Positions 3,931 to 29,629 of a stretch of DNA of 32,000 bases are shown piece by piece. The position numbers and the translations under genes were made by a program. This DNA is from Schaalia odontolytica. Lineage in GTDB: Bacteria > Actinomycetota > Actinomycetes > Actinomycetales > Actinomycetaceae. Under the pieces are notes generated by a model. It saw nothing but the letters and a program-made list of their open reading frames with translations. It had not been told where the DNA came from and searched no databases. The DNA is taken from assembly GCF_005696695.1 (NCBI RefSeq), contig NZ_CP040006.1, forward strand, positions 120,001-152,000, in the 5' to 3' direction. Each line of letters opens with the position of its first letter. Within the stretch, counting starts at the first letter, position 1.

Positions 3931-5426
<1,496 letters not shown>

Positions 5427-5484
5427 GACTGCGAACCTCCACTGTTAATGCTTGCTGCGACTTCGCCGTTGAGTCCAGTGCTCA

Positions 5485-5889
5485 TTAATCTTCTTCCTCC
5501 GAAAGCTCGAACTGCGGGAGGGGATCGCCGTTCTCGTCCAGCATTCTGTGGCGCTTCATGTACTGGTACCGAGGGTCTATCCATCGGGGTACGGGTATCG
5601 GTGAAAAATACCAGACAACACCGATGATGAAAATTGCCAAAGTTATTGCAATAAGTGTCAGTTGGACAAACTGCGGAAATCTTCCATCATTGCCGATTGT
5701 CACGAAGCTGCCGACCAGAAATGCACTTCCTGTTGCAAGGGTGCCGATTGATTGGTACTTGTCATTCATGCGTGTTGCTGAGCTAATGAAGCGCGCATTC
5801 TGGCCAAATTGCGAATCCGTATAAGTCTCGCAATACCACATAGCTAGAATTGCGAGGCTAAACGGTATGCCGATGATTCCCCAAATCAT
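5485..5889 (-). CDS. Small 3-TM membrane protein, paralogue 3 of the putative immunity family
   Basis: The ORF track extends to 6015, overlapping the upstream gene. ATG 5889 (GGAGGTGG upstream) gives MIWGIIGIPFSLAILAMWYCETYTDSQFGQNARF..., aligning with the N-termini of the other paralogues. The tail is [38 protein letters not shown]. Confidence 0.8.
   Translation of the reverse strand: MIWGIIGIPFSLAILAMWYCETYTDSQFGQNARFISSATRMNDKYQSIGTLATGSAFLVGSFVTIGNDGRFPQFVQLTLIAITLAIFIIGVVWYFSPIPVPRWIDPRYQYMKRHRMLDENGDPLPQFELSEEED
5496..5589 (-). repeat. Conserved 94-bp 3' gene module, copy in paralogue 3
   Basis: 6 mismatches in 94 against 8166-8259 by hand alignment. The rest of the gene is strongly diverged. 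Confidence 0.85.
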
Positions 5890-5968
5890 GAGGGTTGTCC
5901 ACCTCCGTGTATAGCGGAATAAGTAGCACTGTTGATGCCTGTTTTGACTTCTCGGTCGAATCCACTGC

Positions 5969-6394
5969 TCATGAATCTTCTTCCTCCGAAAGCTCGAACT
6001 GTGGGAGGGGATCACCGTTCTCGTCCAGCATGCCGTGCCGCTTCATGTATTGGTACCGAGCGTCGGCCCAGCGGGGGACAGGGAATGGGAAGAAGCAAAT
6101 GAAACCTATGACAATAAGTGCTAGCCCAACGATGGCGATACTGAGGGAAGGAATAAGGATGATGCGTATGTTGGGAAGGAGGTCGGTTAGAATTGCCGCC
6201 AGTGCAAACAGTGAGAATCCTGTTGAGATAAATAGTGGAGACAGGGAATCGCCGCTTGTGTTCTTATCGTTTCGATCGCCCATCTCTCGCCATAGTGCGG
6301 CAATAGGGGAGTCTGTGTAAGTTTCCACATACCATGAATACAGGCCGAATAGACCGATGGCTAGGCCCGCAAAGGACCATAGATAGCTCATCAT
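5969..6394 (-). CDS. Small 3-TM membrane protein, paralogue 2 of the putative immunity family
   Basis: 141 aa, beginning MMSYLWSFAGLAIGLFGLYSWYVETYTDSP. AGGAG lies upstream. The tail is [39 protein letters not shown]. Confidence 0.8.
   Translation of the reverse strand: MMSYLWSFAGLAIGLFGLYSWYVETYTDSPIAALWREMGDRNDKNTSGDSLSPLFISTGFSLFALAAILTDLLPNIRIILIPSLSIAIVGLALIVIGFICFFPFPVPRWADARYQYMKRHGMLDENGDPLPQFELSEEEDS
5983..6076 (-). repeat. Conserved 94-bp 3' gene module, copy in paralogue 2
   Basis: 5 mismatches in 94 against 8166-8259 by hand alignment. About 30 bp beyond the stop codon is also shared with the paralogue 3 copy. Confidence 0.85.
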
Positions 6395-6524
6395 CTGCTC
6401 CTATCTTCCGATTGAGCTGAGGAATGTCTCGTTAAATCTGCTTGCTATCGATTGATCCAATCGCGCTGTCGAAGAGCAGTCGTCGTAATGGTGTGTGCTC
6501 AGAAATGAACTGCGGCCTGCTGTA

Positions 6525-6541
6525 TGTCGTGGACGAGGTCA
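6525..6541 (+). repeat. Third, partial (17-bp) copy of the islet boundary repeat
   Basis: TGTCGTGGACGAGGTCA is identical to 9922-9938. As at 5016-5018, its TCA (6539-6541) is the stop codon of the minus-strand gene ending here. Confidence 0.7.
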
Positions 6542-6910
6542 GCTTGATGAGGAGGGGGTCACGGCTGTGATCTGCGTGTTCCCCGTCGGAACAGGGGCCG
6601 TGTACTTGTGGTTGTATTCGTCGTTGTAGCGTTGGATCTCGCGCATGACGTCCGCCACCGCGTCGTCCGTGCACTTGAAGTCCTCTGTTGCGGCCGCTAG
6701 GCCCAAGTAGATGCCGTTCAGGATCCACGCCATGTGGTTGAGTGTTGAGTTCAGAGCCGTGACGTGTTTGCTCAGAGTTGCATCGTGTTCGCTGCCCGTG
6801 TCGGATGTACTGAGGGCTGGCGTCTTCCTGAGTTCTGCGCACGCGTTGCTGAGCTTCGCAATGATCGAATTAACTTCGTCGTAATTCCATTCGAGAACGA
6901 CGTAAGTCAT
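6539..6910 (-). CDS. Small helical protein, possibly WXG100/ESAT-6-like (secretion-associated); function unknown
   Basis: The ORF track starts at 6961. ATG 6910 (GAGAGGAAA upstream) overlaps the upstream stop as ATGA. The ~123-aa product MTYVVLEWNYDEVNSIIAKLSNACAELRK...LGLAAATEDFKCTDDAVADVMREIQRY looks like a two-helix hairpin. No clean W-x-G motif is present. Confidence 0.6.
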   Translation of the reverse strand: MTYVVLEWNYDEVNSIIAKLSNACAELRKTPALSTSDTGSEHDATLSKHVTALNSTLNHMAWILNGIYLGLAAATEDFKCTDDAVADVMREIQRYNDEYNHKYTAPVPTGNTQITAVTPSSSS

Positions 6911-7596
6911 GGCAGTTTCCTCTCGGGTGAAAGGGCGAAGAGATACGTGATGAGTGCCCACAGCTGCGTGTTGTAGATGGGGTGGATGGGGATGTGAGGT
7001 CCGGTGCTGGGTGCGAAAAGCGGAGCCTCGACCCTGTAGGCGGCGGCTGGCGTGATGAACGTGGAGAGGGTAGAGGTCGGAACGAAGGAGCCCTTCTTCG
7101 TGCGCTCTTCCCGGATCCAGGTGGTGTATGCCCAGCGTTGGGCCACGAGAGCCTGCGCGAAGGCGGAATCTGAGGGGCCGTAGGAGGAGTAATTCTCGAG
7201 GAGCTGGGCCGTCTGTTCGGTCGTGCCTTGCTGTGCGGCGTACACGATGGCCGTCGGTAGCACGGGAGGTCCATCGAAGACGGCGGGGTTAGGCGTGAGC
7301 GGAGATATCGCCGCCGTGACGTGGGGAATTTCCTCGTTATCGATCTGATAAATGTGAGTCTCAGTGTCGCCGTCGGGGGTGGTAGCGGTGCGGGCGACGA
7401 CGCAGGGCCCCGCCTGCATCCAGATGAGAGCCTGGCGGCACTGGGAAGCATCCGGAGACGTGGTGGCGATGACCAATCGCGAGCGAGCCGTGCGCATGAG
7501 AGCCGCGAGATGGTCCGCGTCGCCGGTGAGTCCCTCGGAGGTGGCGAAGCTTGAGGTGACATCACCCGGAATGATGATGTGAGGACGGTCAGGCAT
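6907..7596 (-). CDS. Hypothetical cytoplasmic protein (229 aa); EspG-like secretion chaperone is a speculative assignment
   Basis: ATG 7596 has GGAGG 6 nt upstream. It overlaps the upstream gene end by 8 nt and the downstream gene by ATGA. No signal peptide or TM segment. The family was not recognised with confidence. Confidence 0.65.
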   Translation of the reverse strand: MPDRPHIIIPGDVTSSFATSEGLTGDADHLAALMRTARSRLVIATTSPDASQCRQALIWMQAGPCVVARTATTPDGDTETHIYQIDNEEIPHVTAAISPLTPNPAVFDGPPVLPTAIVYAAQQGTTEQTAQLLENYSSYGPSDSAFAQALVAQRWAYTTWIREERTKKGSFVPTSTLSTFITPAAAYRVEAPLFAPSTGPHIPIHPIYNTQLWALITYLFALSPERKLP

Positions 7597-8122
7597 TGCG
7601 CACCTCCAGGCTCATGATGATCGCGAGAACGTCATCGTTCAGGTCGCCGAAAGCGGGTGTCGTCATCGTCGCAGTCGCCGTGAGGAGGAAGTCATTCCCG
7701 CCGTCGGAATGAATCCACGCCCACTGGCAGGCGGTGATGGGGACGCTGCCCTGAATGTAGATTCCCGTGCGCAGGTGTGAAGATTCGGGTCGCGCCGGCC
7801 ACTCGCAATCCTCCAGCATGCGAAAGCCGGGAACCTGATCGGACATGGACTGTGCCGAGTCGGCGAGCGCCTGCGCGGGCGTCGTGCTCGCGGGGATAGG
7901 GGAGGCAAGCACGAGGAGGGTGGGGGTGAAATCGTAATCGGCATCGATGGGGCCGACGGCGAGGGCGATAACGCCACCTTCGGCCGGATGCTGATCGCTG
8001 TCTGGCGTTCGCTCTTGCGCGTCGCCGGCGCTCCCGAATGCCTGGTTGAGGATCGAGGAGATCTCCTCCTTCGGGCACGACGACCAGCGGGGAGGCATCA
8101 GCCAATAGGTCGACAGACTCAT
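7589..8122 (-). CDS. Hypothetical cytoplasmic protein (~177 aa); possible adaptor/chaperone (alpha/beta sandwich pattern)
   Basis: The ORF track starts at 8134. ATG 8122 overlaps the paralogue 1 stop as ATGA and has GGGGGA upstream. The C-terminal pattern GFRMLE...RTGIYIQGSVPITACQWAWIH...FLLTATATMTTPAFGDLNDDVLAIIMSLEV is reminiscent of DUF1795/LpqN-like folds (weak, by eye). Confidence 0.6.
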   Translation of the reverse strand: MSLSTYWLMPPRWSSCPKEEISSILNQAFGSAGDAQERTPDSDQHPAEGGVIALAVGPIDADYDFTPTLLVLASPIPASTTPAQALADSAQSMSDQVPGFRMLEDCEWPARPESSHLRTGIYIQGSVPITACQWAWIHSDGGNDFLLTATATMTTPAFGDLNDDVLAIIMSLEVRNA

Positions 8123-8559
8123 GGTGTCCCCCATCCCTGATCGTTGTCAGCGGACTCCTCGTCGTCCTCCGAAAGCTCGAACTGCGGGAGGGGATCGCCG
8201 TTCTCGTCCAGCATTCCGTGGCGCTTCATGTACTGGTACCGAGCGTCGGCCCAGCGGGGAATAGGCAATGGAGAAAAACGCCAGATCAGAGAAATGAGTA
8301 TGACAAGCAAGGTGAGGATAAGTAGAGAGTTGATAACGAGGTTTGGCAATTTAAGCTCGTTGCATATGATGACGATGGCTGCAAAAATGAATACGACTCC
8401 TGTTGCGGGGAATCCGATGGCATCTGACTTAGGATGTGCGTGAAAGGTTGTGCTAATAAAGCGTGAATTCTTCCCGTATGACGTATCCGTGAAGGTCTGA
8501 ATGTACCATGTCGCTAAAATAACTGTTCCGAATAGAAGGGCAAGTATTCCCAATAACAT
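8119..8559 (-). CDS. Small 3-TM membrane protein, paralogue 1; putative cognate immunity protein
   Basis: 146 aa, beginning MLLGILALLFGTVILATWYIQTFTDTSYGKNSRF. ATG 8559 lies 2 nt after the toxin stop, and its GGAGGA RBS is formed by the last codons of the toxin gene. The tail is [39 protein letters not shown]. Confidence 0.8.
   Translation of the reverse strand: MLLGILALLFGTVILATWYIQTFTDTSYGKNSRFISTTFHAHPKSDAIGFPATGVVFIFAAIVIICNELKLPNLVINSLLILTLLVILISLIWRFSPLPIPRWADARYQYMKRHGMLDENGDPLPQFELSEDDEESADNDQGWGTP
8166..8259 (-). repeat. Conserved 94-bp 3' gene module, copy in paralogue 1
   Basis: CCTCCGAAAGCTCGAACTGCGGGAGGGGATCGCCGTTCTCGTCCAGCAT...CCCAGCGGGG is shared with the three other paralogues. 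Confidence 0.85.
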
Positions 8560-8561
8560 TA

Positions 8562-9749
8562 TTATCCTCCGTGAATTGCTGTGTGTATCCCGTTGTTCGC
8601 TAGGTCTGCTAGGTAGCTTCCGGTGGCGCTTCCAATAAGTCCGCCAACTACTCCTCCGATAATTCCTCCAGCAAGAATGCCGACGGGGCCTCCGAATGCG
8701 CCAATGGTAGCGCCGATTTTTGCGCCTGCGACACCACCTGCGAAACCTAGTCCGCCGCTGGCACCGCCCTTGAGACCGGCTCTTGCTACCTTCTCGCCCT
8801 GTCCCATCTCCGGGTGGTGGTAGGAGTCCGACTGGTAGCTGTCGTAGGCGCTGACGACTCCGTCGAGGACCGCGCAGGCGCGGCCTGCGACTTTGCCGCC
8901 AATGCGCAATGCGTCGGCGGTCTTGATCGCTCGACTGCCGCCCTTGACGGCGTCCACCCCCGGGACTTTCCAGTTCTTGAGGTTCCCTCGCTCGGTGATC
9001 TGCTTCCAGGGGGACGCGTCTTTGATTCCGGCCGGCGCCTGGTACTTGGCGCCCTTCGCCTGTAGATAGACCGACTCGATCCCGTCTGCGAGGGTATTGC
9101 GCATGGTGTCCGCCCAGCCCGGTAGGCGAGCTGGCACATTCAACCCCGTGGGGAATCCGTACGTGCCGACGAATTTGTTGAACACGGGGAGGAGGGTCGA
9201 CTCCCAGACGGTGGGGTCGATACCCGCGAGGTCGTCGCCGAACAGTGTTTCCGCGTAGGCGAACTTCCTCTGGTTGATCTCGCAGCGTGAGCGCAGCGAC
9301 GCGAAGAAGGCGCCAACGCCGCCCGGGACGTTTGCTGGGTGGCTGATGGTCACTTTCGTTCCGTCACGAGAAACCGTGAGCCCGGCGCCGCTGGCGTCGG
9401 TGACAATGGCTCGAAACTCTGTCCTGATGGGTTTCAGGGTGCCCCCGTAGTCCTCCAGGGCGGATTGCAGCGAGCGGAAACATGACAGCGCATGCTCGCT
9501 CGCGGAGATGACATTCGTCAGGTGCTCGACGACGGTCTCCACCAGCCTGGCTCTCTGATGTTCGACCATCCCTCGGGCGGCCGTCGCGTCGCCAATGGCC
9601 TCGTCGAGTGCCGCGATCGGTTTGTCGCACTGGTCCTTCAGCGACAGGATCGCGTCCACCTTAACCGGAAAGTCCCACGAAAAGGACTCGGCGAATTCTA
9701 CGGTTCCTGCAGATGTGGGAACCGTTGAGGTGGCTGGAAGGGGGGGCAT
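8562..9749 (-). CDS. Putative secreted polymorphic toxin: helical N-terminal region plus C-terminal glycine-zipper (membrane-inserting) module
   Basis: The ORF runs to 9797 (411 aa). ATG 9749 has GGAG 7 nt upstream, giving ~395 aa. No Sec signal peptide. The N-terminal ~100 aa is helical (VKVDAILSLKDQCDKPIAALDEAIGDATAARGMVEHQRARLVETVVEHL...). The C-terminal ~60 aa is GGASGGLGFAGGVAGAKIGATIGAFGGPVGILAGGIIGGVVGGLIGSATG, a GxxxG/A zipper. Confidence 0.75.
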   Translation of the reverse strand: MPPLPATSTVPTSAGTVEFAESFSWDFPVKVDAILSLKDQCDKPIAALDEAIGDATAARGMVEHQRARLVETVVEHLTNVISASEHALSCFRSLQSALEDYGGTLKPIRTEFRAIVTDASGAGLTVSRDGTKVTISHPANVPGGVGAFFASLRSRCEINQRKFAYAETLFGDDLAGIDPTVWESTLLPVFNKFVGTYGFPTGLNVPARLPGWADTMRNTLADGIESVYLQAKGAKYQAPAGIKDASPWKQITERGNLKNWKVPGVDAVKGGSRAIKTADALRIGGKVAGRACAVLDGVVSAYDSYQSDSYHHPEMGQGEKVARAGLKGGASGGLGFAGGVAGAKIGATIGAFGGPVGILAGGIIGGVVGGLIGSATGSYLADLANNGIHTAIHGG

Positions 9750-13646: not shown

Positions 13647-14295
13647 GCTGCTTGTGGCCCCACGGGTGTTCCGGGCGCCGGAGGGCCCGGCCGCCCGCGA
13701 GGCTAGGCGTCCTCACTTCGTTCGGCGCCGCGCCTCGAAGCCCGCCCGTGCCCTCCGGTCCCTCCGGCGCCCTCCACACCTGTGGGGCTGGATCGCTGTG
13801 CTAGCCCGGCCAGGCCCCGCCGCCGCCCACGGGCACCGCAGCCTGGCCCTCAGGGTCCTCCGGTGCCCTCCACACCGGCGGCGCCTGGTCGCTGTTGTCT
13901 GGTTCGGTGCGTCGTCTCGAAGCCCGGCCAGGCCCCGCCGCCGCCCACGGGCCCGCAGTCAGGCCGTGCCAACCAGGCGGCCGGTTGTCTGAAACCGGTG
14001 TCGCCATTGCTCGTGCCTGCCTGCGTAGGGTTGAAACCGTCATCGCCTTTGCGGGTGCGAAATGGGTGTTTCTTAGTGCAGTTTTCGGGTGCAGAGGTGA
14101 TGTCGGTTTCAACGGTCCCTTGTCGGGGGTGAGCAGTGGTGTTGTTGGTTTCAACGTCGCTACGTTGTCGCACCTCGTGCGCGAAAAAGTTCGCCCTGCT
14201 TGGCCTGATGTGTGCGTGAGCGCGAAAAAGTTCGCCCTGCACGCTCAAAACACCCCAAAATCGGCGTTTTTACATTTGCTGGGCGAGTTTTTTCG
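13647..14295 (+). repeat. Long intergenic repeat element, copy 1 (GC-rich 5' module plus GAAACC/GGTTTC hairpin module plus 3' module)
   Basis: Collinear with 28127-28968 by hand alignment. Shared blocks include GGTGTTCCGGGCGCCG, GGTTCGG(T/C)GCGTCGTCTCGAAGCCCGGCCAGGCCCC, GTTGAAACCGTCATC(G/A)CCTTTGCGGG, GCGCGAAAAAG(T/G)TCGCCCTGCT and TGCTGGGCGA. Confidence 0.8.
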
Positions 14296-14720
14296 CGCCA
14301 ACCCCACCTGCGCCGATCTTGGATGCAGCGCCGCGCACTTCAGGCTGGCTGCCGATGGGGGTTTTGCAGCATTAGGAACTGGCTGTCGGCGTGTCGCCGG
14401 CGTGTCACACCCCTAATGACGCCATTCCCCCCGTTGCGTGGTGCTGAGGTTGCGGCGTGAGGGGGTGGACGCATCGATTGTGCTATTCAGCGCTGTAGGC
14501 GAGGCGGATGCGAGGCGGATCTGGTCGCTGGACCCCACTACTGGCACCCTTAACCCGCTAATGCGCAGCTAAACCCTATTGGTGGCATGGTGGGCAGGCC
14601 GCCCAGGGCGCCACCCATCGGGTTAACGTGCGCATGAAGGGGCCCAGGCCGCCACCTATCGGGTTAACGTGCGCGTAGGTCGGCCCTGGCGGTCCGAGCA
14701 GCTGGAGCCCAGCCAGCTCG

Positions 14721-19185: not shown

Positions 19186-19500
19186 TTGTTGCTGTGCGCC
19201 CGGGATGTGTTCTGGGTGCCGGAGGGGTTGGCCTTGCTGGGCCCGGCTGCTTGGTGCGCCCGTGGGCGGCGGCCCGCCCGCGAGATCGCCACACGCGAGC
19301 CTTCGGCTCGGAGTGATCGATCAGATGCCCGGCCAGGCCTTGCCGCCGCCCACGGGCGCCGCAGCCTGGCCCTCCCGCCCGTGTTCTCGGTCCCACCGGC
19401 GCCCTTCCAACAGCAGGGGCTTCGTGTTCTGCTGGGATGTCTAGCCAGGCCTTGCCGCCGACCACGGGCGCCGCAGCCTGGATCACCAGTGTTCTGGTCC
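19182..19500 (+). repeat. Long intergenic repeat element, copy 3 (5' GC-rich module only)
   Basis: Shares CGTGGGCGGCGGCCCGCCCGCGAGATCGCCACACGCGAGC...CTCGGAGTG(A/G)TCGATC with 28264-28325. It carries two copies of CCAGGCC(TT/CC)GCCGCCG(C/A)CCACGGGC(G/A)CCGCAGCCTGG, as also seen at 13808-13848. Confidence 0.75.
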
Positions 19501-19643: not shown

Positions 19644-19785
19644 CGCGGATAGGAAACGGCTACGTGGATAGGTTACGAGGATCCGGATAGGTTACGACGA
19701 TGCGGATAGGTTACGAGGATCCGGATAGGTTATGAGGATCCGGATACCTTAATAACCTATCCGCATGTACGCAACCTATCCGTGT
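19644..19785 (+). repeat. Iteron-like array: six direct 19-bp units (consensus CGGATAGGTTACGAGGATC) followed by two inverted copies
   Basis: GGATAGG occurs at 19646, 19665, 19684, 19703 and 19722, and GGATACC at 19742. Inverted CCTATCC occurs at 19756 and 19775. Unit junctions create ATCCGGAT palindromes. Confidence 0.8.
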
Positions 19786-19938
19786 AGGGGGCTGGGTTGG
19801 ACTGGGGGGCGTGCACCTGGCCGTCGAGGTGCCTATTCGCGTAGCGGCCCGGTGCCCTGCGTGGTGATCCGGTGCATTGAGCACGCGCGAGAGTTGAGAC
19901 TGCGCGAGTAGAGCCCACCCGCGACAGAATTTCCCGTT

Positions 19939-20985
19939 TCAGCCGATCAGCGTCGACTGGTGGTGCACCATGATCAGGCGCGATTCGCCAGACGTCGCCG
20001 GCGCCCACACGCTGGATTCCAGCGACGCGCCGCCCTCCCAGCGCACCCGGTAGCGCGTCAGGAACGACCCGCCCAGGTCGTGCGCGTCGATGCGGCCGAT
20101 CGCCGGGGAAGCGGGCGAGGGGCCCGCCAGCGTCGTGGTCGCGCCGCCACCCGGCCAGATGCGCGTCGTGCGCTCGTCGGTCATGGCCGCCAGTGCCTCC
20201 TCGTCGCCGCCGGTCCACGCCAGGATGAACTCGCGCTCGCGGGCGACCGCATCCTCGGTGGTCGGAGCGCTCACGGACGAGGCTGGGGCCGCCTCCGCTG
20301 GTTCAATCGGCTCAGCAGAAGCAGAGAAAACGCTGGGATGAGAACGGAATGTCGACGTGGCGGCCTCGTCGGTGGAGGTGTCGTGTGAAGCGGGAGCGCT
20401 CCCTTGGGCATCAGTAGTAGCGGGCACGTTGTGCGGCTCGACGGACGTGGGCGCAGAGGTAGCACCCCCGGATGCCTGATCCGCCGACGCAGTGCCACGT
20501 GACGCAGTGCCACGCGACGCGCCGCCCCCGAACCCGGGGCCCGGCTCGGGCGTGCGCCCAGCCTGGTAGGCCTCGGCGCATGCGCGCGCGAGGTCGTCGG
20601 CCCGCTCGTTCATATGGTGCCCAGCGTGGCCCTTGACCCACTCGAAGGTGACGCGGCGCCCCTCCATGGCCCGATCGATCTCCTGGATGAGCTCCAGGTT
20701 CTTGATGGGTTTCTTGTCGGCCTTCGTCCAGCCGCGCTTCTTCCAGCCGAGCCGCCACTTGGATACGACGTTGATCGCGTACTGCGAGTCGGCGAGGATG
20801 TGCAGCTCTTCGCCGGTCTCGGCCGTGGCCTCGAGCAGACGCAGAATCGCGGTCAGCTCGCCTAGGTTGTTGGTGCCCTGCGGCCAGCCGCCCGCGTCCC
20901 ACGTGTCCTCGTCCACGTACCAGGCCCACCCCGCGGGCCCAGGATTGCCGAGGGAAGAACCGTCCGCCGCCGCCGTAATCGTCAT
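19939..20985 (-). CDS. rnhA: RNase HI fused through a low-complexity linker to a C-terminal NTF2/SnoaL-like (DUF4440-like) domain
   Basis: The N-terminal ~150 aa has type 1 RNase H hallmarks: MTITAAADGSSLGNPGPAGWAWY...TNNLGELTAIL...ILADSQYAINV...WVKGHAGHHMNERADDLA. An S/T/A/P-rich linker follows. The C-terminal ~100 aa (EREFILAWTGGDEEALAAMTDERTTRIWPGG...RYRVRWEGG...LIMVHHQSTL) is assigned by eye only. Confidence 0.85.
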   Translation of the reverse strand: MTITAAADGSSLGNPGPAGWAWYVDEDTWDAGGWPQGTNNLGELTAILRLLEATAETGEELHILADSQYAINVVSKWRLGWKKRGWTKADKKPIKNLELIQEIDRAMEGRRVTFEWVKGHAGHHMNERADDLARACAEAYQAGRTPEPGPGFGGGASRGTASRGTASADQASGGATSAPTSVEPHNVPATTDAQGSAPASHDTSTDEAATSTFRSHPSVFSASAEPIEPAEAAPASSVSAPTTEDAVAREREFILAWTGGDEEALAAMTDERTTRIWPGGGATTTLAGPSPASPAIGRIDAHDLGGSFLTRYRVRWEGGASLESSVWAPATSGESRLIMVHHQSTLIG

Positions 20986-21112
20986 GCCCTCATCCTATCG
21001 GCATCCCGCTTGCCTGATCGGAAGGGGGACGAGGCCGGGGCCGCCTCAGCCTCGTGCCCTAGACTCTGGGGTGGGCGTGGTCGCGCCCTTCGCTGCACAG
21101 ACGAGGACGGAG

Positions 21113-22474
21113 ATGACCATGAGTACACACAACGGTGAGAAGCGTGAGACGGGTGCCGACGAACAAGAGCAAGGCAGCTCGAAGAAACCGGATCGTTCCC
21201 GCCGATGGGCTTTCCTGACGCTCGCTCTCCCGATTGCGCTGCTCGCGTGGAGTTGCGTTCCGAAGGCTTCCCTGCCGGTGACGCCGACCAACAAACTGGC
21301 CATCGGGGATGCCGTCATTGCTGTGCAGCTGGGTGAAGCACAATCGCAGTCGGGCCTTGAATCCCCAATTCAGAACAACTTGGTTGCACTTGTTGACATG
21401 CAAGGGGAGCAGGATATCGTGCGTATCGGCAACCAGTGGGAAGGTAGGATCCTGTGGTCTGATCGCGGTATCTCCTTCGGTGCCGACCAATGGGAGTACC
21501 AGACGACAGAAAACGGAACGAGTAGCCAAGAAATTAAGGACTGGCGGGCCTCGAACGTCCAGCGTTATGAGTTGTCGGATGGTCGATTCATCGTGGTTTC
21601 TTACTCGTCAGACTTGGGCTATCGGGTCGATACGATCGAACGTGATGGAAGCGTGACGAGTGTGTCAACTCCCGGAACGCGCGGGGACATGGGGCAGTGT
21701 GGGGATCGGATCCTGTCGATCGTTGACACGAAGCAATTCCCGCGTGTGAGAACGGAGGCTTTCGAGGCTTACGCCGCACAGTCGGGCGGCGATGGCGAGC
21801 AACCGGAGGAGCTGTCTGTCGTCATTCAGTTGAATGATCGCGATGGTGACACTCCTCGGATCATTGGCGTCGCGCCAATGATCGACGGCTTGGTGTCGGG
21901 ACAGAGAGAGTTCGCCTGTGAGGGGGACGTGATCACGATGCCGAGCGTCCAAACGGGCGACTCTCGAGTCGTTCGTGTGATGGCAGATGGTGGAGAGACG
22001 GGAACGATGGTTCTCGAGCGCTGGGATCTGGCGACTGGGGAGCGCACGATTATTCCCGTGGTCGACGAGCAGGAAAATCCCATCGAAGTGAACAGGGACC
22101 GCAGCATTTTCGACTATCAGGGGATCCAGGTCGGTGATGAGTACCGGTTCATCAGTGAAGGCGGGGATGCGTTTGCAGTGGACCTGAGGAGCGGTCGAGG
22201 CCGCTACCTGTTCTCTTATTCCGGTACACGAATCAACCAGCGAATGGTGTACCAGGTGAGTGAGACGGGCGTATACGCGCTCGAGGGCCGCCGGGAGGAT
22301 CACAATGTCACCCTCTCTTACCGGCCGTGGGATGGGGGAGCATACCGGGACGTCATCACAATGGACAAGCTGGCAGACTACGTCTGGTTGGAAGGCGGTT
22401 TCATGTCGTCGGGCCACTGGCGAAGGATTCAGTCGTTCTCTCTGCGCCCCGGCTGGGATGGCGGCGCGCAGTAA
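21113..22474 (+). CDS. Hypothetical exported protein, paralogue A (twin-arginine-like signal plus lipobox-like Cys); beta-rich body of unknown family
   Basis: The ORF track starts at 20633, antisense to rnhA. ATG 21113 or 21119 gives M(TM)STHNGEKRETGADEQEQGSSKKPDRSRRWAFLTLALPIALLAWSCV.... The C-terminus IQSFSLRPGWDGGAQ is shared with paralogue B. Confidence 0.75.
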   Translation: MTMSTHNGEKRETGADEQEQGSSKKPDRSRRWAFLTLALPIALLAWSCVPKASLPVTPTNKLAIGDAVIAVQLGEAQSQSGLESPIQNNLVALVDMQGEQDIVRIGNQWEGRILWSDRGISFGADQWEYQTTENGTSSQEIKDWRASNVQRYELSDGRFIVVSYSSDLGYRVDTIERDGSVTSVSTPGTRGDMGQCGDRILSIVDTKQFPRVRTEAFEAYAAQSGGDGEQPEELSVVIQLNDRDGDTPRIIGVAPMIDGLVSGQREFACEGDVITMPSVQTGDSRVVRVMADGGETGTMVLERWDLATGERTIIPVVDEQENPIEVNRDRSIFDYQGIQVGDEYRFISEGGDAFAVDLRSGRGRYLFSYSGTRINQRMVYQVSETGVYALEGRREDHNVTLSYRPWDGGAYRDVITMDKLADYVWLEGGFMSSGHWRRIQSFSLRPGWDGGAQ

Positions 22475-22607
22475 CGTTGTTCGGTTGTCCGGGGTTCCCG
22501 CTCGGTCGGGACGTCACTCGATGGGACGAGGACGGGGCAGCCTCGGCCTCGTGCCCTAGACTCTGGGGGTGGGCGTGGAAGCGCCCGCTGCCGCGATGAG
22601 AGGGAAG

Positions 22608-23963
22608 ATGCGCATGGGGGAACGCCTCGACGAGCTTTGTGAGACGGCTGCCGACGAGCAGGAGCATGGCCACCCGAAGAAGCCGAAGCGTTTCCGCCGA
22701 TGGGCTCTCCTCGTCGTCGTGCTCTCGGTTGCCGCGCTGGCGTGGAGCTGCGTTTTCCATGGGGGATTGACCAGAAAACCGGCTAGTTTTCTCGCGACGA
22801 ATGACGCGGTCGTTGCCGTGCGTCTGGGGTCCGGATGGTCCACGGTGGCCGAGGATTTTCGGTATAACGACTATGACGGCTGGATCGTGCTTCTCGACGC
22901 CGACGGGCGCGGCCAGGTTGCTGCCGTGAACAATGTGCTTGATGGCGATGTGGTGTGGAATGAGCGGGGCGTCTTCTACGCGGCGTCTTCTCACGACTTC
23001 CTCACGACCCAGGCGGGAACGCAGGAAATTGGACGAGGAGACCGCAGCGACGAGCGTCAACGCTATGCACTCCCCGATGGCGCGCTCGCGGTTGTGAGTG
23101 GTGAAGAGTTTGGGTATGAGGTTGACACCGTCCACGTTGATGGACGTGTGGCGAGCGTCGAGAATGACAAGACAGGAGGCTCTGTCGGGCAGTGTGGGGC
23201 GCGGATCTTGGCGATCACCGACACGAAGGAGTCTCGCGGCATCAGTGCCGCAGCGTTCGCGGCGTATGCTGCTCGATCGGGCGACGAGAAGCCGCCGACC
23301 ACCCTCGCGGCTGTTGTTCAGCTCAATGACCACGATGGCGAGGAGTCTCCAGTCCTCGCGGTAGCGCCGATGATCGACGGCTTGGGGTCGCGACAACACA
23401 TGTTTGCCTGCGAAGGGGACGTCATCACGATGCCGACCGAGCTGTCGGACGAGGCCGCTGCCTCAAGCCATGGTTCGACGAGCGAGCGGCAGCGAACGGT
23501 GGTTCTTGAGCGGTGGGACCTGTCAACGGGTGAGCGCTCGATCATTCCCGTCCTCGACGAGGCCGGCAACCCCCTTGAGTTGAATGATGAGCAGGGCGTT
23601 TCCGAGTACGAGGCGATTCGCGTGGGCAACGAGTACAGGTTCGTGTCGTGGGGTGGGGATGCTTTCGCTGTCGACCCGGCGAGTGGCCAGGGACGTTACT
23701 TGTTTTCGCTTGATACGCCAACGTATGGGCCGGACGGATACTTGGCGACCTTCCAGGTGACCGAGACCGGCGTCTACGCGCTGAAGGATCGTCGCTCTGA
23801 CCGCGTCGTGACCCTCTCGTACAGGCCCTGGGAAGGTGGCGAGTGGCGTGACATCTTCACGACCCGTGACCTGGCCTATTTCCTCAAGAAAGGCGAGTTG
23901 ACGCCGACGGCGGACATCCAGTCCTTCGCCCTGCGGCCCGGCTGGGACGGTGGCGCGCAGTAA
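22608..23963 (+). CDS. Hypothetical exported protein, paralogue B of 21113..22474
   Basis: ATG 22608 (GAGAGGGAAG upstream; ATG 22614 is also possible) gives MRMGERLDELCETAADEQEHGHPKKPKRFRRWALLVVVLSVAALAWSCV.... It is collinear with paralogue A through shared GQCG.RIL, VVQLND.DG, APMIDGL, FACEGDVITMP, LERWDL.TGER.IIPV, GDAFAVD, TLSYRPW and LRPGWDGGAQ. Confidence 0.75.
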   Translation: MRMGERLDELCETAADEQEHGHPKKPKRFRRWALLVVVLSVAALAWSCVFHGGLTRKPASFLATNDAVVAVRLGSGWSTVAEDFRYNDYDGWIVLLDADGRGQVAAVNNVLDGDVVWNERGVFYAASSHDFLTTQAGTQEIGRGDRSDERQRYALPDGALAVVSGEEFGYEVDTVHVDGRVASVENDKTGGSVGQCGARILAITDTKESRGISAAAFAAYAARSGDEKPPTTLAAVVQLNDHDGEESPVLAVAPMIDGLGSRQHMFACEGDVITMPTELSDEAAASSHGSTSERQRTVVLERWDLSTGERSIIPVLDEAGNPLELNDEQGVSEYEAIRVGNEYRFVSWGGDAFAVDPASGQGRYLFSLDTPTYGPDGYLATFQVTETGVYALKDRRSDRVVTLSYRPWEGGEWRDIFTTRDLAYFLKKGELTPTADIQSFALRPGWDGGAQ

Positions 23964-27156: not shown

Positions 27157-28089
27157 GTGAAGGAAACGGCAGAGCACTACCCGACCCCCGAAGAGTCCAT
27201 CGCCACGATGGTCACCATCGACGACACCGCCCTCGTGTTCGAAGGCGGCGGCATGCGCAACGCCTACACGGCCGCGCTCGTGAACCGACTCATCGCCGAA
27301 GGCATCAACTTCCCCCATATTTCCGGGGTTTCTGCGGGTTCCAGCCACCTGTGCAACTTCACCTCCCGCGACGCGCAGCGTTCCCACGACACCTTCGTCG
27401 ACCTCGTCGAAGACCCCGAATTCGGCGGACTCAAGCACTTCCGCAAGGGCCACGGCTACTTCAACGCCGAGTACATCTACCAGCAGATCTGCTACCCCGA
27501 CGGCGCCCTGCCCTTCAACATGGATGCGTTCCTGGCGAACCCGGCGACCACGCGCGTCGCCACCTTCAACGCGTCGCGTGGGCAGGTCCGCTGGTTCTCC
27601 AAGGAAGAAATGAGCACCCTGGACACGCTCGGACCCATCATCCGCGCCTCCTCCACGCTGCCGATCCTCATGCCTCCCGTCGAGATCGACGGCGACACCT
27701 ATGTCGATGGTGCGCTCGGCCCCAACGGCGGCCTGCCCTTCGACCAGCCCCTGCGCGAGGGCTATCGCAAACTCCTCGTCGTCCTCACTCGCCCCCGCGA
27801 CTACGTTAAGGGCCCCATGCCCGCCAGCGTCGGCGCGCTCCTGCGTACCGCCTACCGCCAGTTCCCCTCCGTGTTCGAGGGCGTGGCTCGCCGCCCCGAC
27901 CGCTACAACGCGGGACGCCGCTTCCTCTTCGAGCTTGAGGAACGAGGCCAGGCCTACGTGTTCGCCCCCGACAACCTGTGGATCAACAACACCGAGTCGC
28001 GGCGCGAACGCCTGGAAGCGACCTACCGTGCCGGCCTGGTGCAGGCCGTGCGCGAAATGCCCGCGATCAAGGCGTTCCTGGGGCTGTAG
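27157..28089 (+). CDS. Patatin-like phospholipase
   Basis: Motifs: ALVFEGGGMRNAY (GGGxR oxyanion), GVSAGS (GxSxG nucleophile) and YVDGALGPNGG (catalytic Asp). The start is GTG 27157, with ATG 27208 as an alternative. Confidence 0.88.
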   Translation: MKETAEHYPTPEESIATMVTIDDTALVFEGGGMRNAYTAALVNRLIAEGINFPHISGVSAGSSHLCNFTSRDAQRSHDTFVDLVEDPEFGGLKHFRKGHGYFNAEYIYQQICYPDGALPFNMDAFLANPATTRVATFNASRGQVRWFSKEEMSTLDTLGPIIRASSTLPILMPPVEIDGDTYVDGALGPNGGLPFDQPLREGYRKLLVVLTRPRDYVKGPMPASVGALLRTAYRQFPSVFEGVARRPDRYNAGRRFLFELEERGQAYVFAPDNLWINNTESRRERLEATYRAGLVQAVREMPAIKAFLGL

Positions 28090-28092
28090 GCT

Positions 28093-28122
28093 TTCCTGTT
28101 CCTGTTCCTGTTCCTGTTCCTG
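28093..28122 (+). repeat. Hexanucleotide microsatellite (TTCCTG)x5
   Basis: Five perfect tandem units starting 4 nt after the patatin stop codon. Confidence 0.95.
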
Positions 28123-28126
28123 TGGT

Positions 28127-28968
28127 GGTGCTTGTTGCGCCGCTGGTGTTCCGGGCGCCGCGTGTGCTTTGTGGGGCCGGGCTGCCCGCGTGATTTCCAG
28201 CCGCCGCCTGATCTCCGGCCGCCGCGTGGCCTGCTGTTTTTGGGTGTGTCTGCTCTGTGCGCTCGTGGGCGGCGGCCCGCCCGCGAGATCGCCACACGCG
28301 AGCTTCGCTCGGAGTGGTCGATCTCGAGGCCCGCCCTGGCCCTGCCGCCGCCCACGAGCGCCGCAGCCACACTCCTATTGCCCCGCAGGCCCTGCGGTGG
28401 TCTCCAATCGGGCGGGCATGTGTGTGCCCTGGCCCCGCCGCCCACCGGCACCGCGGCCAGGCCCTCCGGTCCCTCCGGCGCCCTCCACACCAGTGGTGCC
28501 TGGCGTGCTGCTGACATGTGGTTCGGCGCGTCGTCTCGAAGCCCGGCCAGGCCCCATAGGCCAGGCGGTTCGGTTCTTTGAAACCCCTGTCGCCTTTGCG
28601 CGCTCGTACGTGCCTGGGGTTGAAACCGTCATCACCTTTGCGGGCCGGCGAGGTGCGCCAGTTGAAACCACCATCGCCTTTGCGGCTATGAAACGGGCGA
28701 TTTTGGTGCGTTTTTTGGTTGCAGTGGTGACGGTGGTTTCAACGGTTGCTATTCAAGGGCGCGCAGTGGTGATGGGGGTTTCATGCTGACCTGCAGCAGC
28801 GGTCGTAGAGGTGTCATTGGTTTCAATATCGCCACGTCGCCGCTTCCTGCGCGCGAAAAAGGTCGCCCTGCTCGGTCTGATGGTGGACGCGAGCGTGACT
28901 ATATTCGCCCTGCAGGCGAAAAAGTACCCAAAATTGGCGTTTTATGGCGTGCTGGGCGAATTTTGTAC
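28127..28968 (+). repeat. Long intergenic repeat element, copy 2 (the longest; three nested hairpin arm pairs)
   Basis: Collinear with 13647-14295 and, in its 5' third, with 19182-19500 (hand alignment). Confidence 0.8.
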
Positions 28969-29063
28969 CGGATGCGCTGATGAAGGGCCTGTGTCGGGCG
29001 AGTTATGTCCCGGACCTTGCATCTAGGGCCTCTTGCTGCCGATATGTTCCTGGATCTGCGGGA

Positions 29064-29079
29064 CGACTAGATGTTGCCC
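29064..29079. promoter_or_regulatory. NrdR-box-like site
   Basis: cgaCTAGATGTTGccc fits the core pattern C-w-A-n-A-T-n-T-w-G of the published 16-bp NrdR box consensus (acaCwAtATaTwGtgt). Confidence 0.4.
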
Positions 29080-29137
29080 CACGATCTCGTGCTATCTGGC
29101 CGATCTGTTTCTCGGTCTGCGGCGCGCCCAGATGCGC

Positions 29138-29178
29138 CCCCTAGATGTAGGGCTCGTGTCGGCCCCTAGATCTAGGGT
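29138..29178. promoter_or_regulatory. Two NrdR-box-like sites (29138-29153 and 29163-29178)
   Basis: cccCTAGATGTAGggc and cccCTAGATCTAGggt. The second contains the perfect 14-bp palindrome CCCTAGATCTAGGG. Confidence 0.5.
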
Positions 29179-29274
29179 GCGCCTCCCGTTGGAGGCGCGC
29201 GTGGGTGCCTCGCTCAGACCCCATGCGACCGCCTTTCCGCATGATTCCGGCCATTTCGCCAAAAATGCCACTCA

Positions 29275-29323
29275 CCCCTATATCTAGGGGCGCTTAGTCG
29301 CCAACGACCCCTAGATGTGCGGG
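29275..29323. promoter_or_regulatory. Two NrdR-box-like sites (29275-29290 and 29308-29323), centres 33 bp apart
   Basis: cccCTATATCTAGggg and cccCTAGATGTGCggg. The tandem spacing is close to the ~31-32 bp typical of paired NrdR boxes. Confidence 0.5.
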
Positions 29324-29454
29324 TGCGACACGCCCAAGAGTGCCACCAAAGAGTGTGACGCTCGACATCTTTCAGGTGGTTGGCAGGTGGTTATGCACAG
29401 GGTGGTGATGCGCTCGTCCACAGGGTGCACAGGTGTGTGTGAGGGTGGTGGAGA

Positions 29455-29470
29455 CCCCTAGATGTGCCCG
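29455..29470. promoter_or_regulatory. NrdR-box-like site
   Basis: cccCTAGATGTGCccg, nearly identical to the 29308-29323 site. Confidence 0.4.
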
Positions 29471-29613
29471 TGGGTTAGTCGCAAACCCCAATGTTTGCGC
29501 GCATCTTCGCGCACCTGTGCGGAGGGGGCGACAAATCGCAAAGGCCTCTCCGAGATCCTGACCGCTCGCTCCATCCACAGACCCCTCCTGCCTCGTCCAC
29601 AGTTGGGGCGGCG

Positions 29614-29629
29614 CACACAACATCTAGGG
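29614..29629. promoter_or_regulatory. NrdR-box-like site nearest to nrdH (about 115 nt upstream of the start)
   Basis: acaCAACATCTAGggg; the left half matches the consensus aca-C-w-A exactly. Confidence 0.55.

Follow-up and report, generated by a model that had tools for sequence, protein, structure and literature searches.

A 32,000-nucleotide (nt) stretch of Schaalia odontolytica DNA (NCBI RefSeq assembly GCF_005696695.1, contig NZ_CP040006.1, positions 120,001 to 152,000 of the forward strand; the whole stretch is referred to here as the window) contains two intergenic arrays of nested inverted repeats, at 13988-14155 (copy 1) and 28577-28827 (copy 2). Copy 2, the feature under study, is one member of a dispersed, non-coding, lineage-restricted and modular family of intergenic repeats with a strict layout. 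All copies inherit a strand-specific folding potential, they lie preferentially at the 3' ends of genes, and at the few loci that are informative the folding strand is biased toward the sense orientation. We assign a probability of roughly 50% to the reading in which this chromosomal repeat family works through strand-specific RNA hairpins that form in the 3' untranslated regions of upstream genes.

The extent of the family was defined by two scans. About 32 loci came from a pattern scan in which each species was represented by one genome, amid chance single matches in other organisms, and a scan of metagenome contigs, with a pattern made from the invariant core columns only, added at least 120 further loci. 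Combined after cleaning, and counted among the matches listed, the two scans give at least 166 arrays, 157 of them complete, in at least 150 Actinomycetaceae loci (Schaalia, Pauljensenia, "Actinomyces" and metagenome-assembled genomes of Actinomycetaceae). Every listed array consists of one to five forward (F) units, a conserved asymmetric core and one to six reverse (R) units, the commonest combinations (F+R) being 2+2 (61 arrays), 2+3 (33) and 3+3 (13). The 42-nt unit is made of a 26-nt conserved arm and a 16-nt spacer, the spacers falling into a few recurring types, and of the 448 intervals between units 433 show the 42-nt period. The core, which is 83 nt long in 157 arrays and 84 nt in 9, has the consensus GTTGAAACCGCCATCGCCTTTGCGGGTGAGAAATGGGCGTTTTTGGTGCGTTTTTCGGTTGCAGAGGTGATGTCGGTTTCAAC and forms a symmetric hairpin in which position i pairs with position 84-i. 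Arrays measure 125-335 nt and lie inside a composite of ~430-600 nt. A second, smaller foldback array of like design usually follows the main one; this right-hand part comprises two forward GCGCGAAAAAGTTCGCCCTGC units at a distance of ~41-42 nt, then a small hairpin at the apex and finally a single reverse unit or two. Among independent loci, conserved sequence reaches ~55 nt beyond the array on the left and ~190 nt on the right, and tails off from there without an abrupt boundary. Only 8 orphan units were seen outside arrays in the loci examined. A blastn search of both the plasmid and the phage collection returned no match, and our literature searches found no description of the family. Tandem Repeats Finder does not detect the 42-nt arrays, because the spacers make the copies too unlike.

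Both window copies follow this layout. The pattern GTTGAAACCNNNRTCRCC, allowing up to three mismatches, matches 18 times in the window, against 2.1 ± 1.6 times in shuffled sequence, and its ten best matches lie at 13988 and 14030 (+) and 14113 and 14155 (-) for copy 1 and at 28577, 28619 and 28661 (+) and 28743, 28785 and 28827 (-) for copy 2. These are the arm positions and the nested order that a preliminary description, made from the letters alone, had given for the two copies. The units are spaced by exactly 42 nt on the forward and on the reverse side of both copies, and the innermost F and R units start 82-83 nt apart. In copy 2 (all coordinates on the + strand), the forward arm at 28577-28686 carries F units at 28577-28602, 28619-28644 and 28661-28686, with the 42-nt period and 16-nt spacers, each unit having the 26-nt form GTTGAAACC-nnn-ATCGCCTTTGCGG. 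The asymmetric core centre at 28687-28717 (family consensus GTGAGAAATGGGCGTTTTTGGTGCGTTTTTCGG) is the G.U-rich hairpin apex of the 83-nt core, and the reverse arm at 28718-28827 carries R units at 28718-28743, 28760-28785 and 28802-28827, with the same period, each the reverse complement of GTTGAAACC-nnn-ATCACCWCTGC. Copy 1, likewise on the + strand, has F units starting at 13988 and 14030 and R units ending at 14113 and 14155, around an 84-nt core (14030-14113).

Paired by hand, the innermost units of copy 2, F3 and R3, form 20 Watson-Crick pairs, 4 G.U pairs and 2 mismatches (A.C and U.U) over 26 positions, exactly as first counted. Folded as + strand RNA, positions 28570-28835 give one near-continuous nested hairpin of -142.7 kcal/mol (z = -9.3, with none of 200 shuffles as good), against -98.0 kcal/mol (z = -4.5) for the - strand RNA. 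With DNA parameters, the corresponding values are -64 (z = -6.0) and -55 kcal/mol (z = -4.6). A chance origin of the window arrays was rejected on the motif excess over shuffles and on the z score of the + strand RNA fold.

The wobble pairs are thus specific to the + strand, as the preliminary description had stated, and the asymmetry extends to the family as a whole. With array orientation assigned from the asymmetric core centre, not from folding, the top strand forms the more stable RNA in all 34 arrays tested, by 37 kcal/mol on average; the right-hand module behaves in the same way at 31 of 35 independent loci. Fixed transitions distinguish the forward units from the reverse ones (TCGCCTTTGCGGG versus TCACCTCTGCAAC), so that the long nested, G.U-aided hairpin can form on one strand only. 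Across 149 distinct cores, a G.U pair on the top strand is conserved at ~9 core pairs, and over whole arrays 426 arm-to-arm transition mismatches are compatible with G.U pairing on the top strand, against 68 on the bottom strand. At positions where the consensus pair is Watson-Crick, G.U variants outnumber A.C variants by 274 to 143, counted as alignment cells, which are not independent events. The top strand is composed of 35% G, 30% T, 21% C and 14% A.

Placement was assessed at independent loci, of which there are 53 when grouped by clustering of the flanking proteins, and among these at loci with securely oriented (canonical) arrays. Of the 19 resolved array loci, 7 lie in convergent spacers, whereas 40 of the 309 gene pairs that lack an array in the same DNA are convergent (p = 0.007), an approximately threefold enrichment; 2 of the 19 lie in divergent spacers. 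Between co-directional genes, the folding strand is the sense strand at nine of ten independent loci (two-sided binomial p = 0.021); the sole antisense locus is copy 1 of the window, which is antisense to both of its flanking genes (azlD and a hydrolase gene, both on the - strand). Only co-directional pairs are informative here, because a convergent pair scores as "same strand" whatever the orientation of the element, and an early count that had pooled them (upstream gene on the same strand in 23 of 27) was discarded as misleading. The nine-to-one sense orientation fits an effect at the level of the transcript. It is in line with the RNA-level structure proposed in the preliminary description. 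The wobble pairs alone do not separate RNA from single-stranded DNA, because G.T pairs are tolerated there too.

Units turn over fast. In the patatin-nrdH spacer that holds copy 2, with orthology judged by the flanking genes, unit numbers are 3+3 in the window and 2+6, 2+3 and 2+2 in three related loci (L005, L076 and L105, respectively); arm length differs among these loci because units are quickly gained and lost, probably through slippage or unequal exchange. In a four-species alignment of this spacer, the array and the right-hand module align well and the upstream part of the spacer does not. The element as a whole has also been gained or lost between lineages, because a relative whose patatin is 82% identical keeps the same patatin-nrdH synteny and has no array: the segment corresponding to window positions 28089-29232 is replaced there by 624 nt of unrelated, repeat-rich sequence. 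A search of patatin orthologues for an empty site yielded this one array-free relative, with no readable junction or target duplication. More distant Schaalia species have lost the synteny.

If the family acts at all, action as an RNA hairpin in 3' untranslated regions appears the most likely form. Lying mainly downstream of genes, and usually with the folding strand as the sense strand, the elements would be transcribed within the 3' untranslated region of the upstream gene and would fold into a very stable RNA hairpin. Such a hairpin could mark or protect the 3' end of the transcript, or attenuate read-through. In the opposite orientation the transcript would be an unstructured, C-rich and G-poor RNA, and this orientation may be selected against within co-directional (operon-like) gene pairs, for instance because it could serve as a Rho entry site. 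In an extended form of this proposal, which we regard as unlikely, the family would be a domesticated, genome-wide and orientation-dependent device for setting transcript boundaries. In the sense orientation, the expandable G.U-rich hairpin would block 3' exonucleases or slow RNA polymerase, with its strength tuned by the number of 42-nt units; in the antisense orientation, an unstructured RNA of 35% C and 21% G would recruit Rho; and a putative dedicated RNA- or DNA-binding protein would read the invariant TGAAACC and TCRCCTTTGC blocks. If true, this would make the family a repeat-encoded, copy-number-tunable regulator of transcript ends.

Several observations weigh against an RNA hairpin role, among them the behavior of the paired positions. 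The preliminary description had read the differences between the two window copies as compensatory. One of them, G-C to A-U, is a genuine compensatory change, but one other runs from U.U to C-G and another from A-U to A.C, and across the family such changes are no commoner than expected by chance. When covariation was tested over the larger set of copies by shuffling, no significant excess was found. In an alignment of 35 cores, 89.1% of cells are paired, compared with 88.7 ± 0.3% when the 3' partners are shuffled, and 79 of 500 shuffles reach or exceed the observed value. Among 146 distinct cores subjected to whole-arm swaps, the variable segment pairs in 67.8%, against 65.9 ± 1.25% (41 of 500 shuffles as high); the overall pairing excess is below 1 percentage point, and a small apical excess (71.4 versus 69.7) tracks sub-family structure. 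Compensatory changes above chance, by which a structured RNA is recognized, are therefore absent from these alignments. The variable triplet is mostly mismatched, and variable positions are for the most part unpaired: of 35 cores, 24 leave pair 11/75 open and 16 leave pair 14/72 open. The helix is kept through conservation of the sequence itself, which points to common descent, homogenization between copies or sequence-specific recognition rather than to selection for pairing. Diverged sub-families do retain the hairpin with different apical sequences. This could reflect selection, but could equally reflect the origin or correction of palindromes by intrastrand template switching, as in quasi-palindrome mutagenesis.

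Further points on the same side concern the arms, the arrays' surroundings and the size of the sample. F and R unit numbers are nearly independent, so that a fully nested hairpin is not maintained: the Spearman coefficient is 0.23 when all arrays are counted and a non-significant 0.13 when each locus contributes one array. An intrinsic (Rho-independent) terminator was rejected, with no U-tract signature at or after the arrays. The orientation bias comes from ten informative loci, and ~17 diverged arrays that cannot be reliably oriented stand outside the count. The bias could reflect the direction of replication instead; GC skew of the flanks is positive in 16 of 35 cases and is a poor proxy for replication, its sign in the window tending to follow the coding strand. 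Three findings speak against a purely structural RNA: covariation is lacking, the invariant blocks flank 5 nt that vary freely, and the two arms differ in length independently. They would accommodate a sequence-specific partner protein, a single-stranded-DNA mechanism or neutral selfish DNA.

The last of these, in which the arrays are selfish or neutral palindromic minisatellites that spread or persist as DNA and whose transcript has no role, we consider unlikely. The G+T-rich strand and the placement would then be side effects of two processes, mutation that is biased between the strands and selection that removes insertions damaging to promoters or operons. The missing covariation, the fast turnover of units, largely independent between the two arms, and the array-free patatin-nrdH spacer of the relative described above speak for this account, and the excess of G.U over A.C variants at polymorphic Watson-Crick positions is limited to 274 against 143. 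However, the G.U positions are fixed differences common to copies from several species, not local mutations; the array and its right-hand module are conserved amid spacer sequence that cannot be aligned; and the nine-to-one sense orientation between co-directional genes also counts against it. A duplex-DNA array of predicted protein-binding sites, each 26-bp unit being bipartite (TGAAACC and TCRCCTTTGC) and the 42-bp phasing, or four helical turns, placing the sites on one face of the helix, would account for the two invariant blocks with ~5 freely varying, non-covarying bases between them, for the strict phasing and for the independent variation of arm lengths. We nevertheless judge it distinctly unlikely. 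A protein that reads duplex DNA has no need of systematic differences between F and R units (G versus A at unit position 16, T versus C at position 20), folding asymmetry and sense bias are unexplained on duplex DNA, a 42-nt period requires nothing more than tandem duplication of a unit of that length, and no candidate protein gene is linked to the arrays.

Less probable again is a single-stranded-DNA hairpin element that is moved or copied by a hairpin-specific enzyme, for which a G.T-tolerant hairpin on one strand would be the substrate; precedents are the dependence of REP elements on RAYT and that of IS200/IS605 elements on their transposase. The strand specificity, the conserved sequence and the many dispersed copies suit such an element, the + strand is still favored when folded as DNA, and neighboring arrays on one contig are co-oriented (in the window and in L013, L049 and L059). 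Against this, no transposase gene adjoins any array in the loci examined, and orphan units are as few as stated above; single units are not self-complementary, unlike REP units; and no target-site duplication or clean empty site can be defined. The preliminary description had itself proposed a candidate structured RNA on the + strand. The structure is indeed real, non-random and strand-asymmetric, and a very stable strand-specific fold with a conserved core sequence could in principle belong to a discrete, trans-acting non-coding RNA gene. That interpretation is highly improbable, however, because the element is a dispersed repeat with a variable number of units and no Rfam family, because it lacks promoter- or terminator-like signals in simple scans, and because copy 1 is antisense to both of its neighbors; covariation is missing here as well. 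The comparison with Rfam (release 15) left the whole window without a match at gathering thresholds. At E <= 10, the region 28100-29500 matched only microRNA-precursor hairpin models, the best at 23.4 bits against a cut-off of 51, which we take as generic hairpin noise.

The surroundings of the arrays are chromosomal. Genes in the window include azlC/azlD and nrdI as well as those for an S9 peptidase, a GtrA-like protein and a patatin-like lipase; homologs of the patatin gene carry the name Schaalia and so assign the window to that genus. Copy 2 occupies the 1.5-kb spacer between the patatin gene (+, ending at 28089) and nrdH (+), and copy 1 lies between azlD and the hydrolase gene; at an orthologous locus, a glutaredoxin-type nrdH and nrdE adjoin the patatin gene. 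No open reading frame (ORF) with coding-type G+C content at third codon positions (GC3) covers 28089-29628 or either array, and no tRNA or tmRNA was found in the window. Simple scans of both window arrays found no sigma-70-type promoter-like site within the element and no terminator-like site at or after it, the counts in both regions being at or below those of shuffles. Across loci, the neighbors are housekeeping genes, and the genes upstream of arrays are unrelated to one another (a UvrD-type helicase, pyruvate phosphate dikinase, ABC and P-type ATPases, a sugar transporter and ribosomal protein S1); no linked gene and no consistent partner emerged.

Outside the main arrays, both window copies carry conserved flanking parts on the + strand. 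The left flank of copy 2 (28510-28576, consensus ...GCCGCAGCCGGGCCCTGCAGGCCAGGTGGCCCGGTTG) runs into the first F unit and is matched by that of copy 1 at 13891-13987. The right-hand module of copy 2 (28828-29013) is a second foldback array of like design, partly degenerate, with forward units at ~28849 and ~28893 (consensus GCGCGAAAAAGTTCGCCCTGC), an apical hairpin of the form AAAA..CCCAAAAT.GGCGTTTT and reverse units of GCTGGGCGAGTTTTTTCGCGG type at ~28949 and ~28992. In copy 1 the corresponding module (14156-14298) has forward units at 14179-14199 and 14220-14241 and a reverse unit at 14277-14298.

Several known classes of repeat were compared with the arrays. A protein-coding repeat of 14 codons (42 = 3 x 14) was rejected: no ORF with coding-type GC3 spans the region, and by direct reading TGA occurs in two of the three frames of the unit and the third frame stops in the core. 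A CRISPR array consists of direct repeats in one orientation with unique spacers of similar length, usually near cas genes; this class was rejected on the two opposed unit blocks, the 16-nt spacers of few recurring types and the housekeeping neighbors. Like a MITE (miniature inverted-repeat transposable element), the arrays are small, non-coding and multi-copy with inverted arms. No terminal inverted repeat with a target duplication could be defined, the 624-nt replacement hiding the one junction, and no parent insertion sequence was seen in the loci examined, which are not whole genomes, nor does any orphan unit flank a transposase-like gene. By direct reading, the unit GTTGAAACCGCCATCGCCTTTGCGGG has no self-complementarity beyond CGC/GCG, in contrast to the 20-40-nt palindromic units of REP/BIME elements, and every listed array has all F units followed by all R units instead of alternating orientations.

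By analogy, BOX elements appear to be the closest counterparts of the Schaalia family, which has the conserved end modules, the variable tandem module and the enrichment between convergent genes that characterize the BOX type, a resemblance that does not amount to membership. The BOX elements of Streptococcus pneumoniae, boxA-(boxB)n-boxC, are composite intergenic repeats whose tandem module varies in copy number between strains; stem-loops are predicted in their transcripts, spacers between convergent genes are enriched in them, and they have no dedicated gene (PMC3049150). Both families are modular and intergenic, with a variable tandem module, convergent enrichment and no linked gene. However, boxB is a central insert that pairs little with boxA or boxC, whereas the 42-nt units of the Schaalia family make up both hairpin arms; the sequences are unrelated, and the Schaalia host is a high-G+C actinobacterium. 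De Gregorio et al. 2005 are said to have found that ERIC elements (IRU) of enterobacteria fold well in one orientation owing to G.U pairs. ERIC resembles the present family as a long imperfect palindrome in transcribed intergenic regions but is a fixed unit of ~127 bp with no tandem sub-units, and its sequence and host range are unrelated. The effect of ERIC on transcripts depends on its orientation (PMC3049150). BrickBuilt, from Porphyromonas gingivalis, is a multi-copy, strictly intergenic MITE with an internal minisatellite and a conserved leader and tail (PMC4596501). It likewise belongs to an oral bacterium and is species-restricted, non-coding and built on a tandem repeat of variable number, but it holds one direct array of 23-nt repeats with no spacers and has small inverted ends, where the Schaalia family has two opposed arrays of 42-nt units with spacers.

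REP/BIME elements are clustered extragenic hairpin repeats with conserved linkers, found at gene 3' ends and proposed to stabilize the upstream mRNA. They share with the arrays a dispersed, hairpin-forming character and this placement, but each REP unit is palindromic and neighboring units alternate, whereas the Schaalia units are non-palindromic and form same-orientation blocks. No RAYT was seen beside the arrays, although no genome-wide search was made. The foldback (FB) transposons of Drosophila have long inverted arms of short tandem sub-repeats and variable arm length; the likeness is one of architecture only, because FB elements belong to eukaryotes, reach kilobase size and demonstrably transpose. 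In sequence the family is unrelated to BOX, ERIC, BrickBuilt, REP/BIME and FB, and it differs from all of them in that both arms are phased, opposed tandem units around a fixed core, followed by a second array of like design. In our reading, it is a new BOX/ERIC/MITE-like family of intergenic repeats with an unusual expandable-arm architecture.

Other foldback and dispersed repeats were seen in the same spacers and loci. A related foldback family with the unit GTGAAATATTCTTCGCCCTG is present at positions 5347-5471 of L047 and also in L128, L187 and L189; by its sequence the unit falls midway from the GAAACC unit to the GCGCGAAAAAGTTCGCCC unit, which suggests that the foldback arrays may form a superfamily. 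Within the window, a 19-nt tandem repeat GGATAGGTTACGAGGATCC (19666-19746, 4.3 copies, 91% matches) and, after it, the GGATAGGTTA motif in inverted copies at 19753-19787 together make another foldback-type array; this motif is found again in L241, within the spacer that lacks an array (5101-5140), and in L028 and L048, where it lies upstream of arrays. The G+C-rich dispersed module GCCCGGCCAGGCCCCGCCGCCGCCCACGGGCACCGCAGCCTGG is present five times (13801-13846, 13919-13964, 19324-19369, 19436-19481 and 28326-28371), with perfect 18-nt inverted repeats (GCGCYCGTGGGCGGCGGC and its complement) near it at 28259-28276/28344-28361 and 19256-19273/19342-19359, and is a separate repeat family that co-occupies spacers with the arrays. 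At 14357-14431, an inverted repeat GGGGGTTTTGCAGCATTAGG ... CCTAATGACGCCATTCCCCC encloses a GGCGTGTCGCCGG motif; close copies in the spacers of L241 (~5388-5460), L102 and L105 identify it as another dispersed module.

Two groups of records that carry arrays are of separate note. Four contigs classed as viral in IMG/VR (L247-L250), all from sample 3300045988, contain the core pattern and may be prophage-flanking or misclassified chromosomal pieces. Arrays also occur in records titled Sanguibacter keddieii 250_SKED and Xylanimonas cellulosilytica 352_XCEL (L004, L005, L028, L073, L095, L113 and L120), one of which, L005, matches the window at 91% identity across 2.9 kb. These assemblies seem to bear the wrong species names, the organisms being Schaalia-like.

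Elsewhere in the window, a perfect (TTCCTG)x5.2 microsatellite at 28093-28123 begins 4 bases past the patatin stop codon. Positions 5000-9000 have a G+C content of 0.51-0.57, compared with 0.62-0.73 in the rest of the window, and contain four copies of a 111-156-nt direct repeat (5056, 5522, 6009 and 8192) among short minus-strand ORFs, some with coding-type GC3; this segment may be a foreign island or a small gene family. Two adjacent paralogous genes (~20633-22474 and ~22569-23963) each have in front of them a 46-nt sequence, 93% identical between the two (GGGACGAGGCCGGGGCCGCCTCAGCCTCGTGCCCTAGACTCTGGGG), and match at 21026-21259 versus 22523-22754 and at 21825-21960 versus 23317-23452, which looks like a tandem gene duplication that took in the upstream region.

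For genome scanning, these arrays show that a striking G.U hairpin with apparent compensatory change can come from a repeat family, not from a structured-RNA gene. Schaalia odontolytica and related species are abundant in the mouth and serve as the model hosts for epibiotic Saccharibacteria (TM7), and their genomes evidently hold many copies of this array as well as several companion repeats. The length and mutual similarity of the arrays could be expected to break short-read assemblies or to attract spurious gene calls. Because unit numbers differ between close relatives, the arrays are ready-made markers for strain typing of the variable-number tandem repeat (VNTR) type, for which the MIRU loci of mycobacteria and BOX-PCR in pneumococci are precedents. 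Canonical U-tract terminators are scarce in high-G+C actinobacteria. If the orientation bias does reflect a role at the level of RNA, the family would provide a natural series of tunable hairpins for the study of 3'-end formation in these bacteria.

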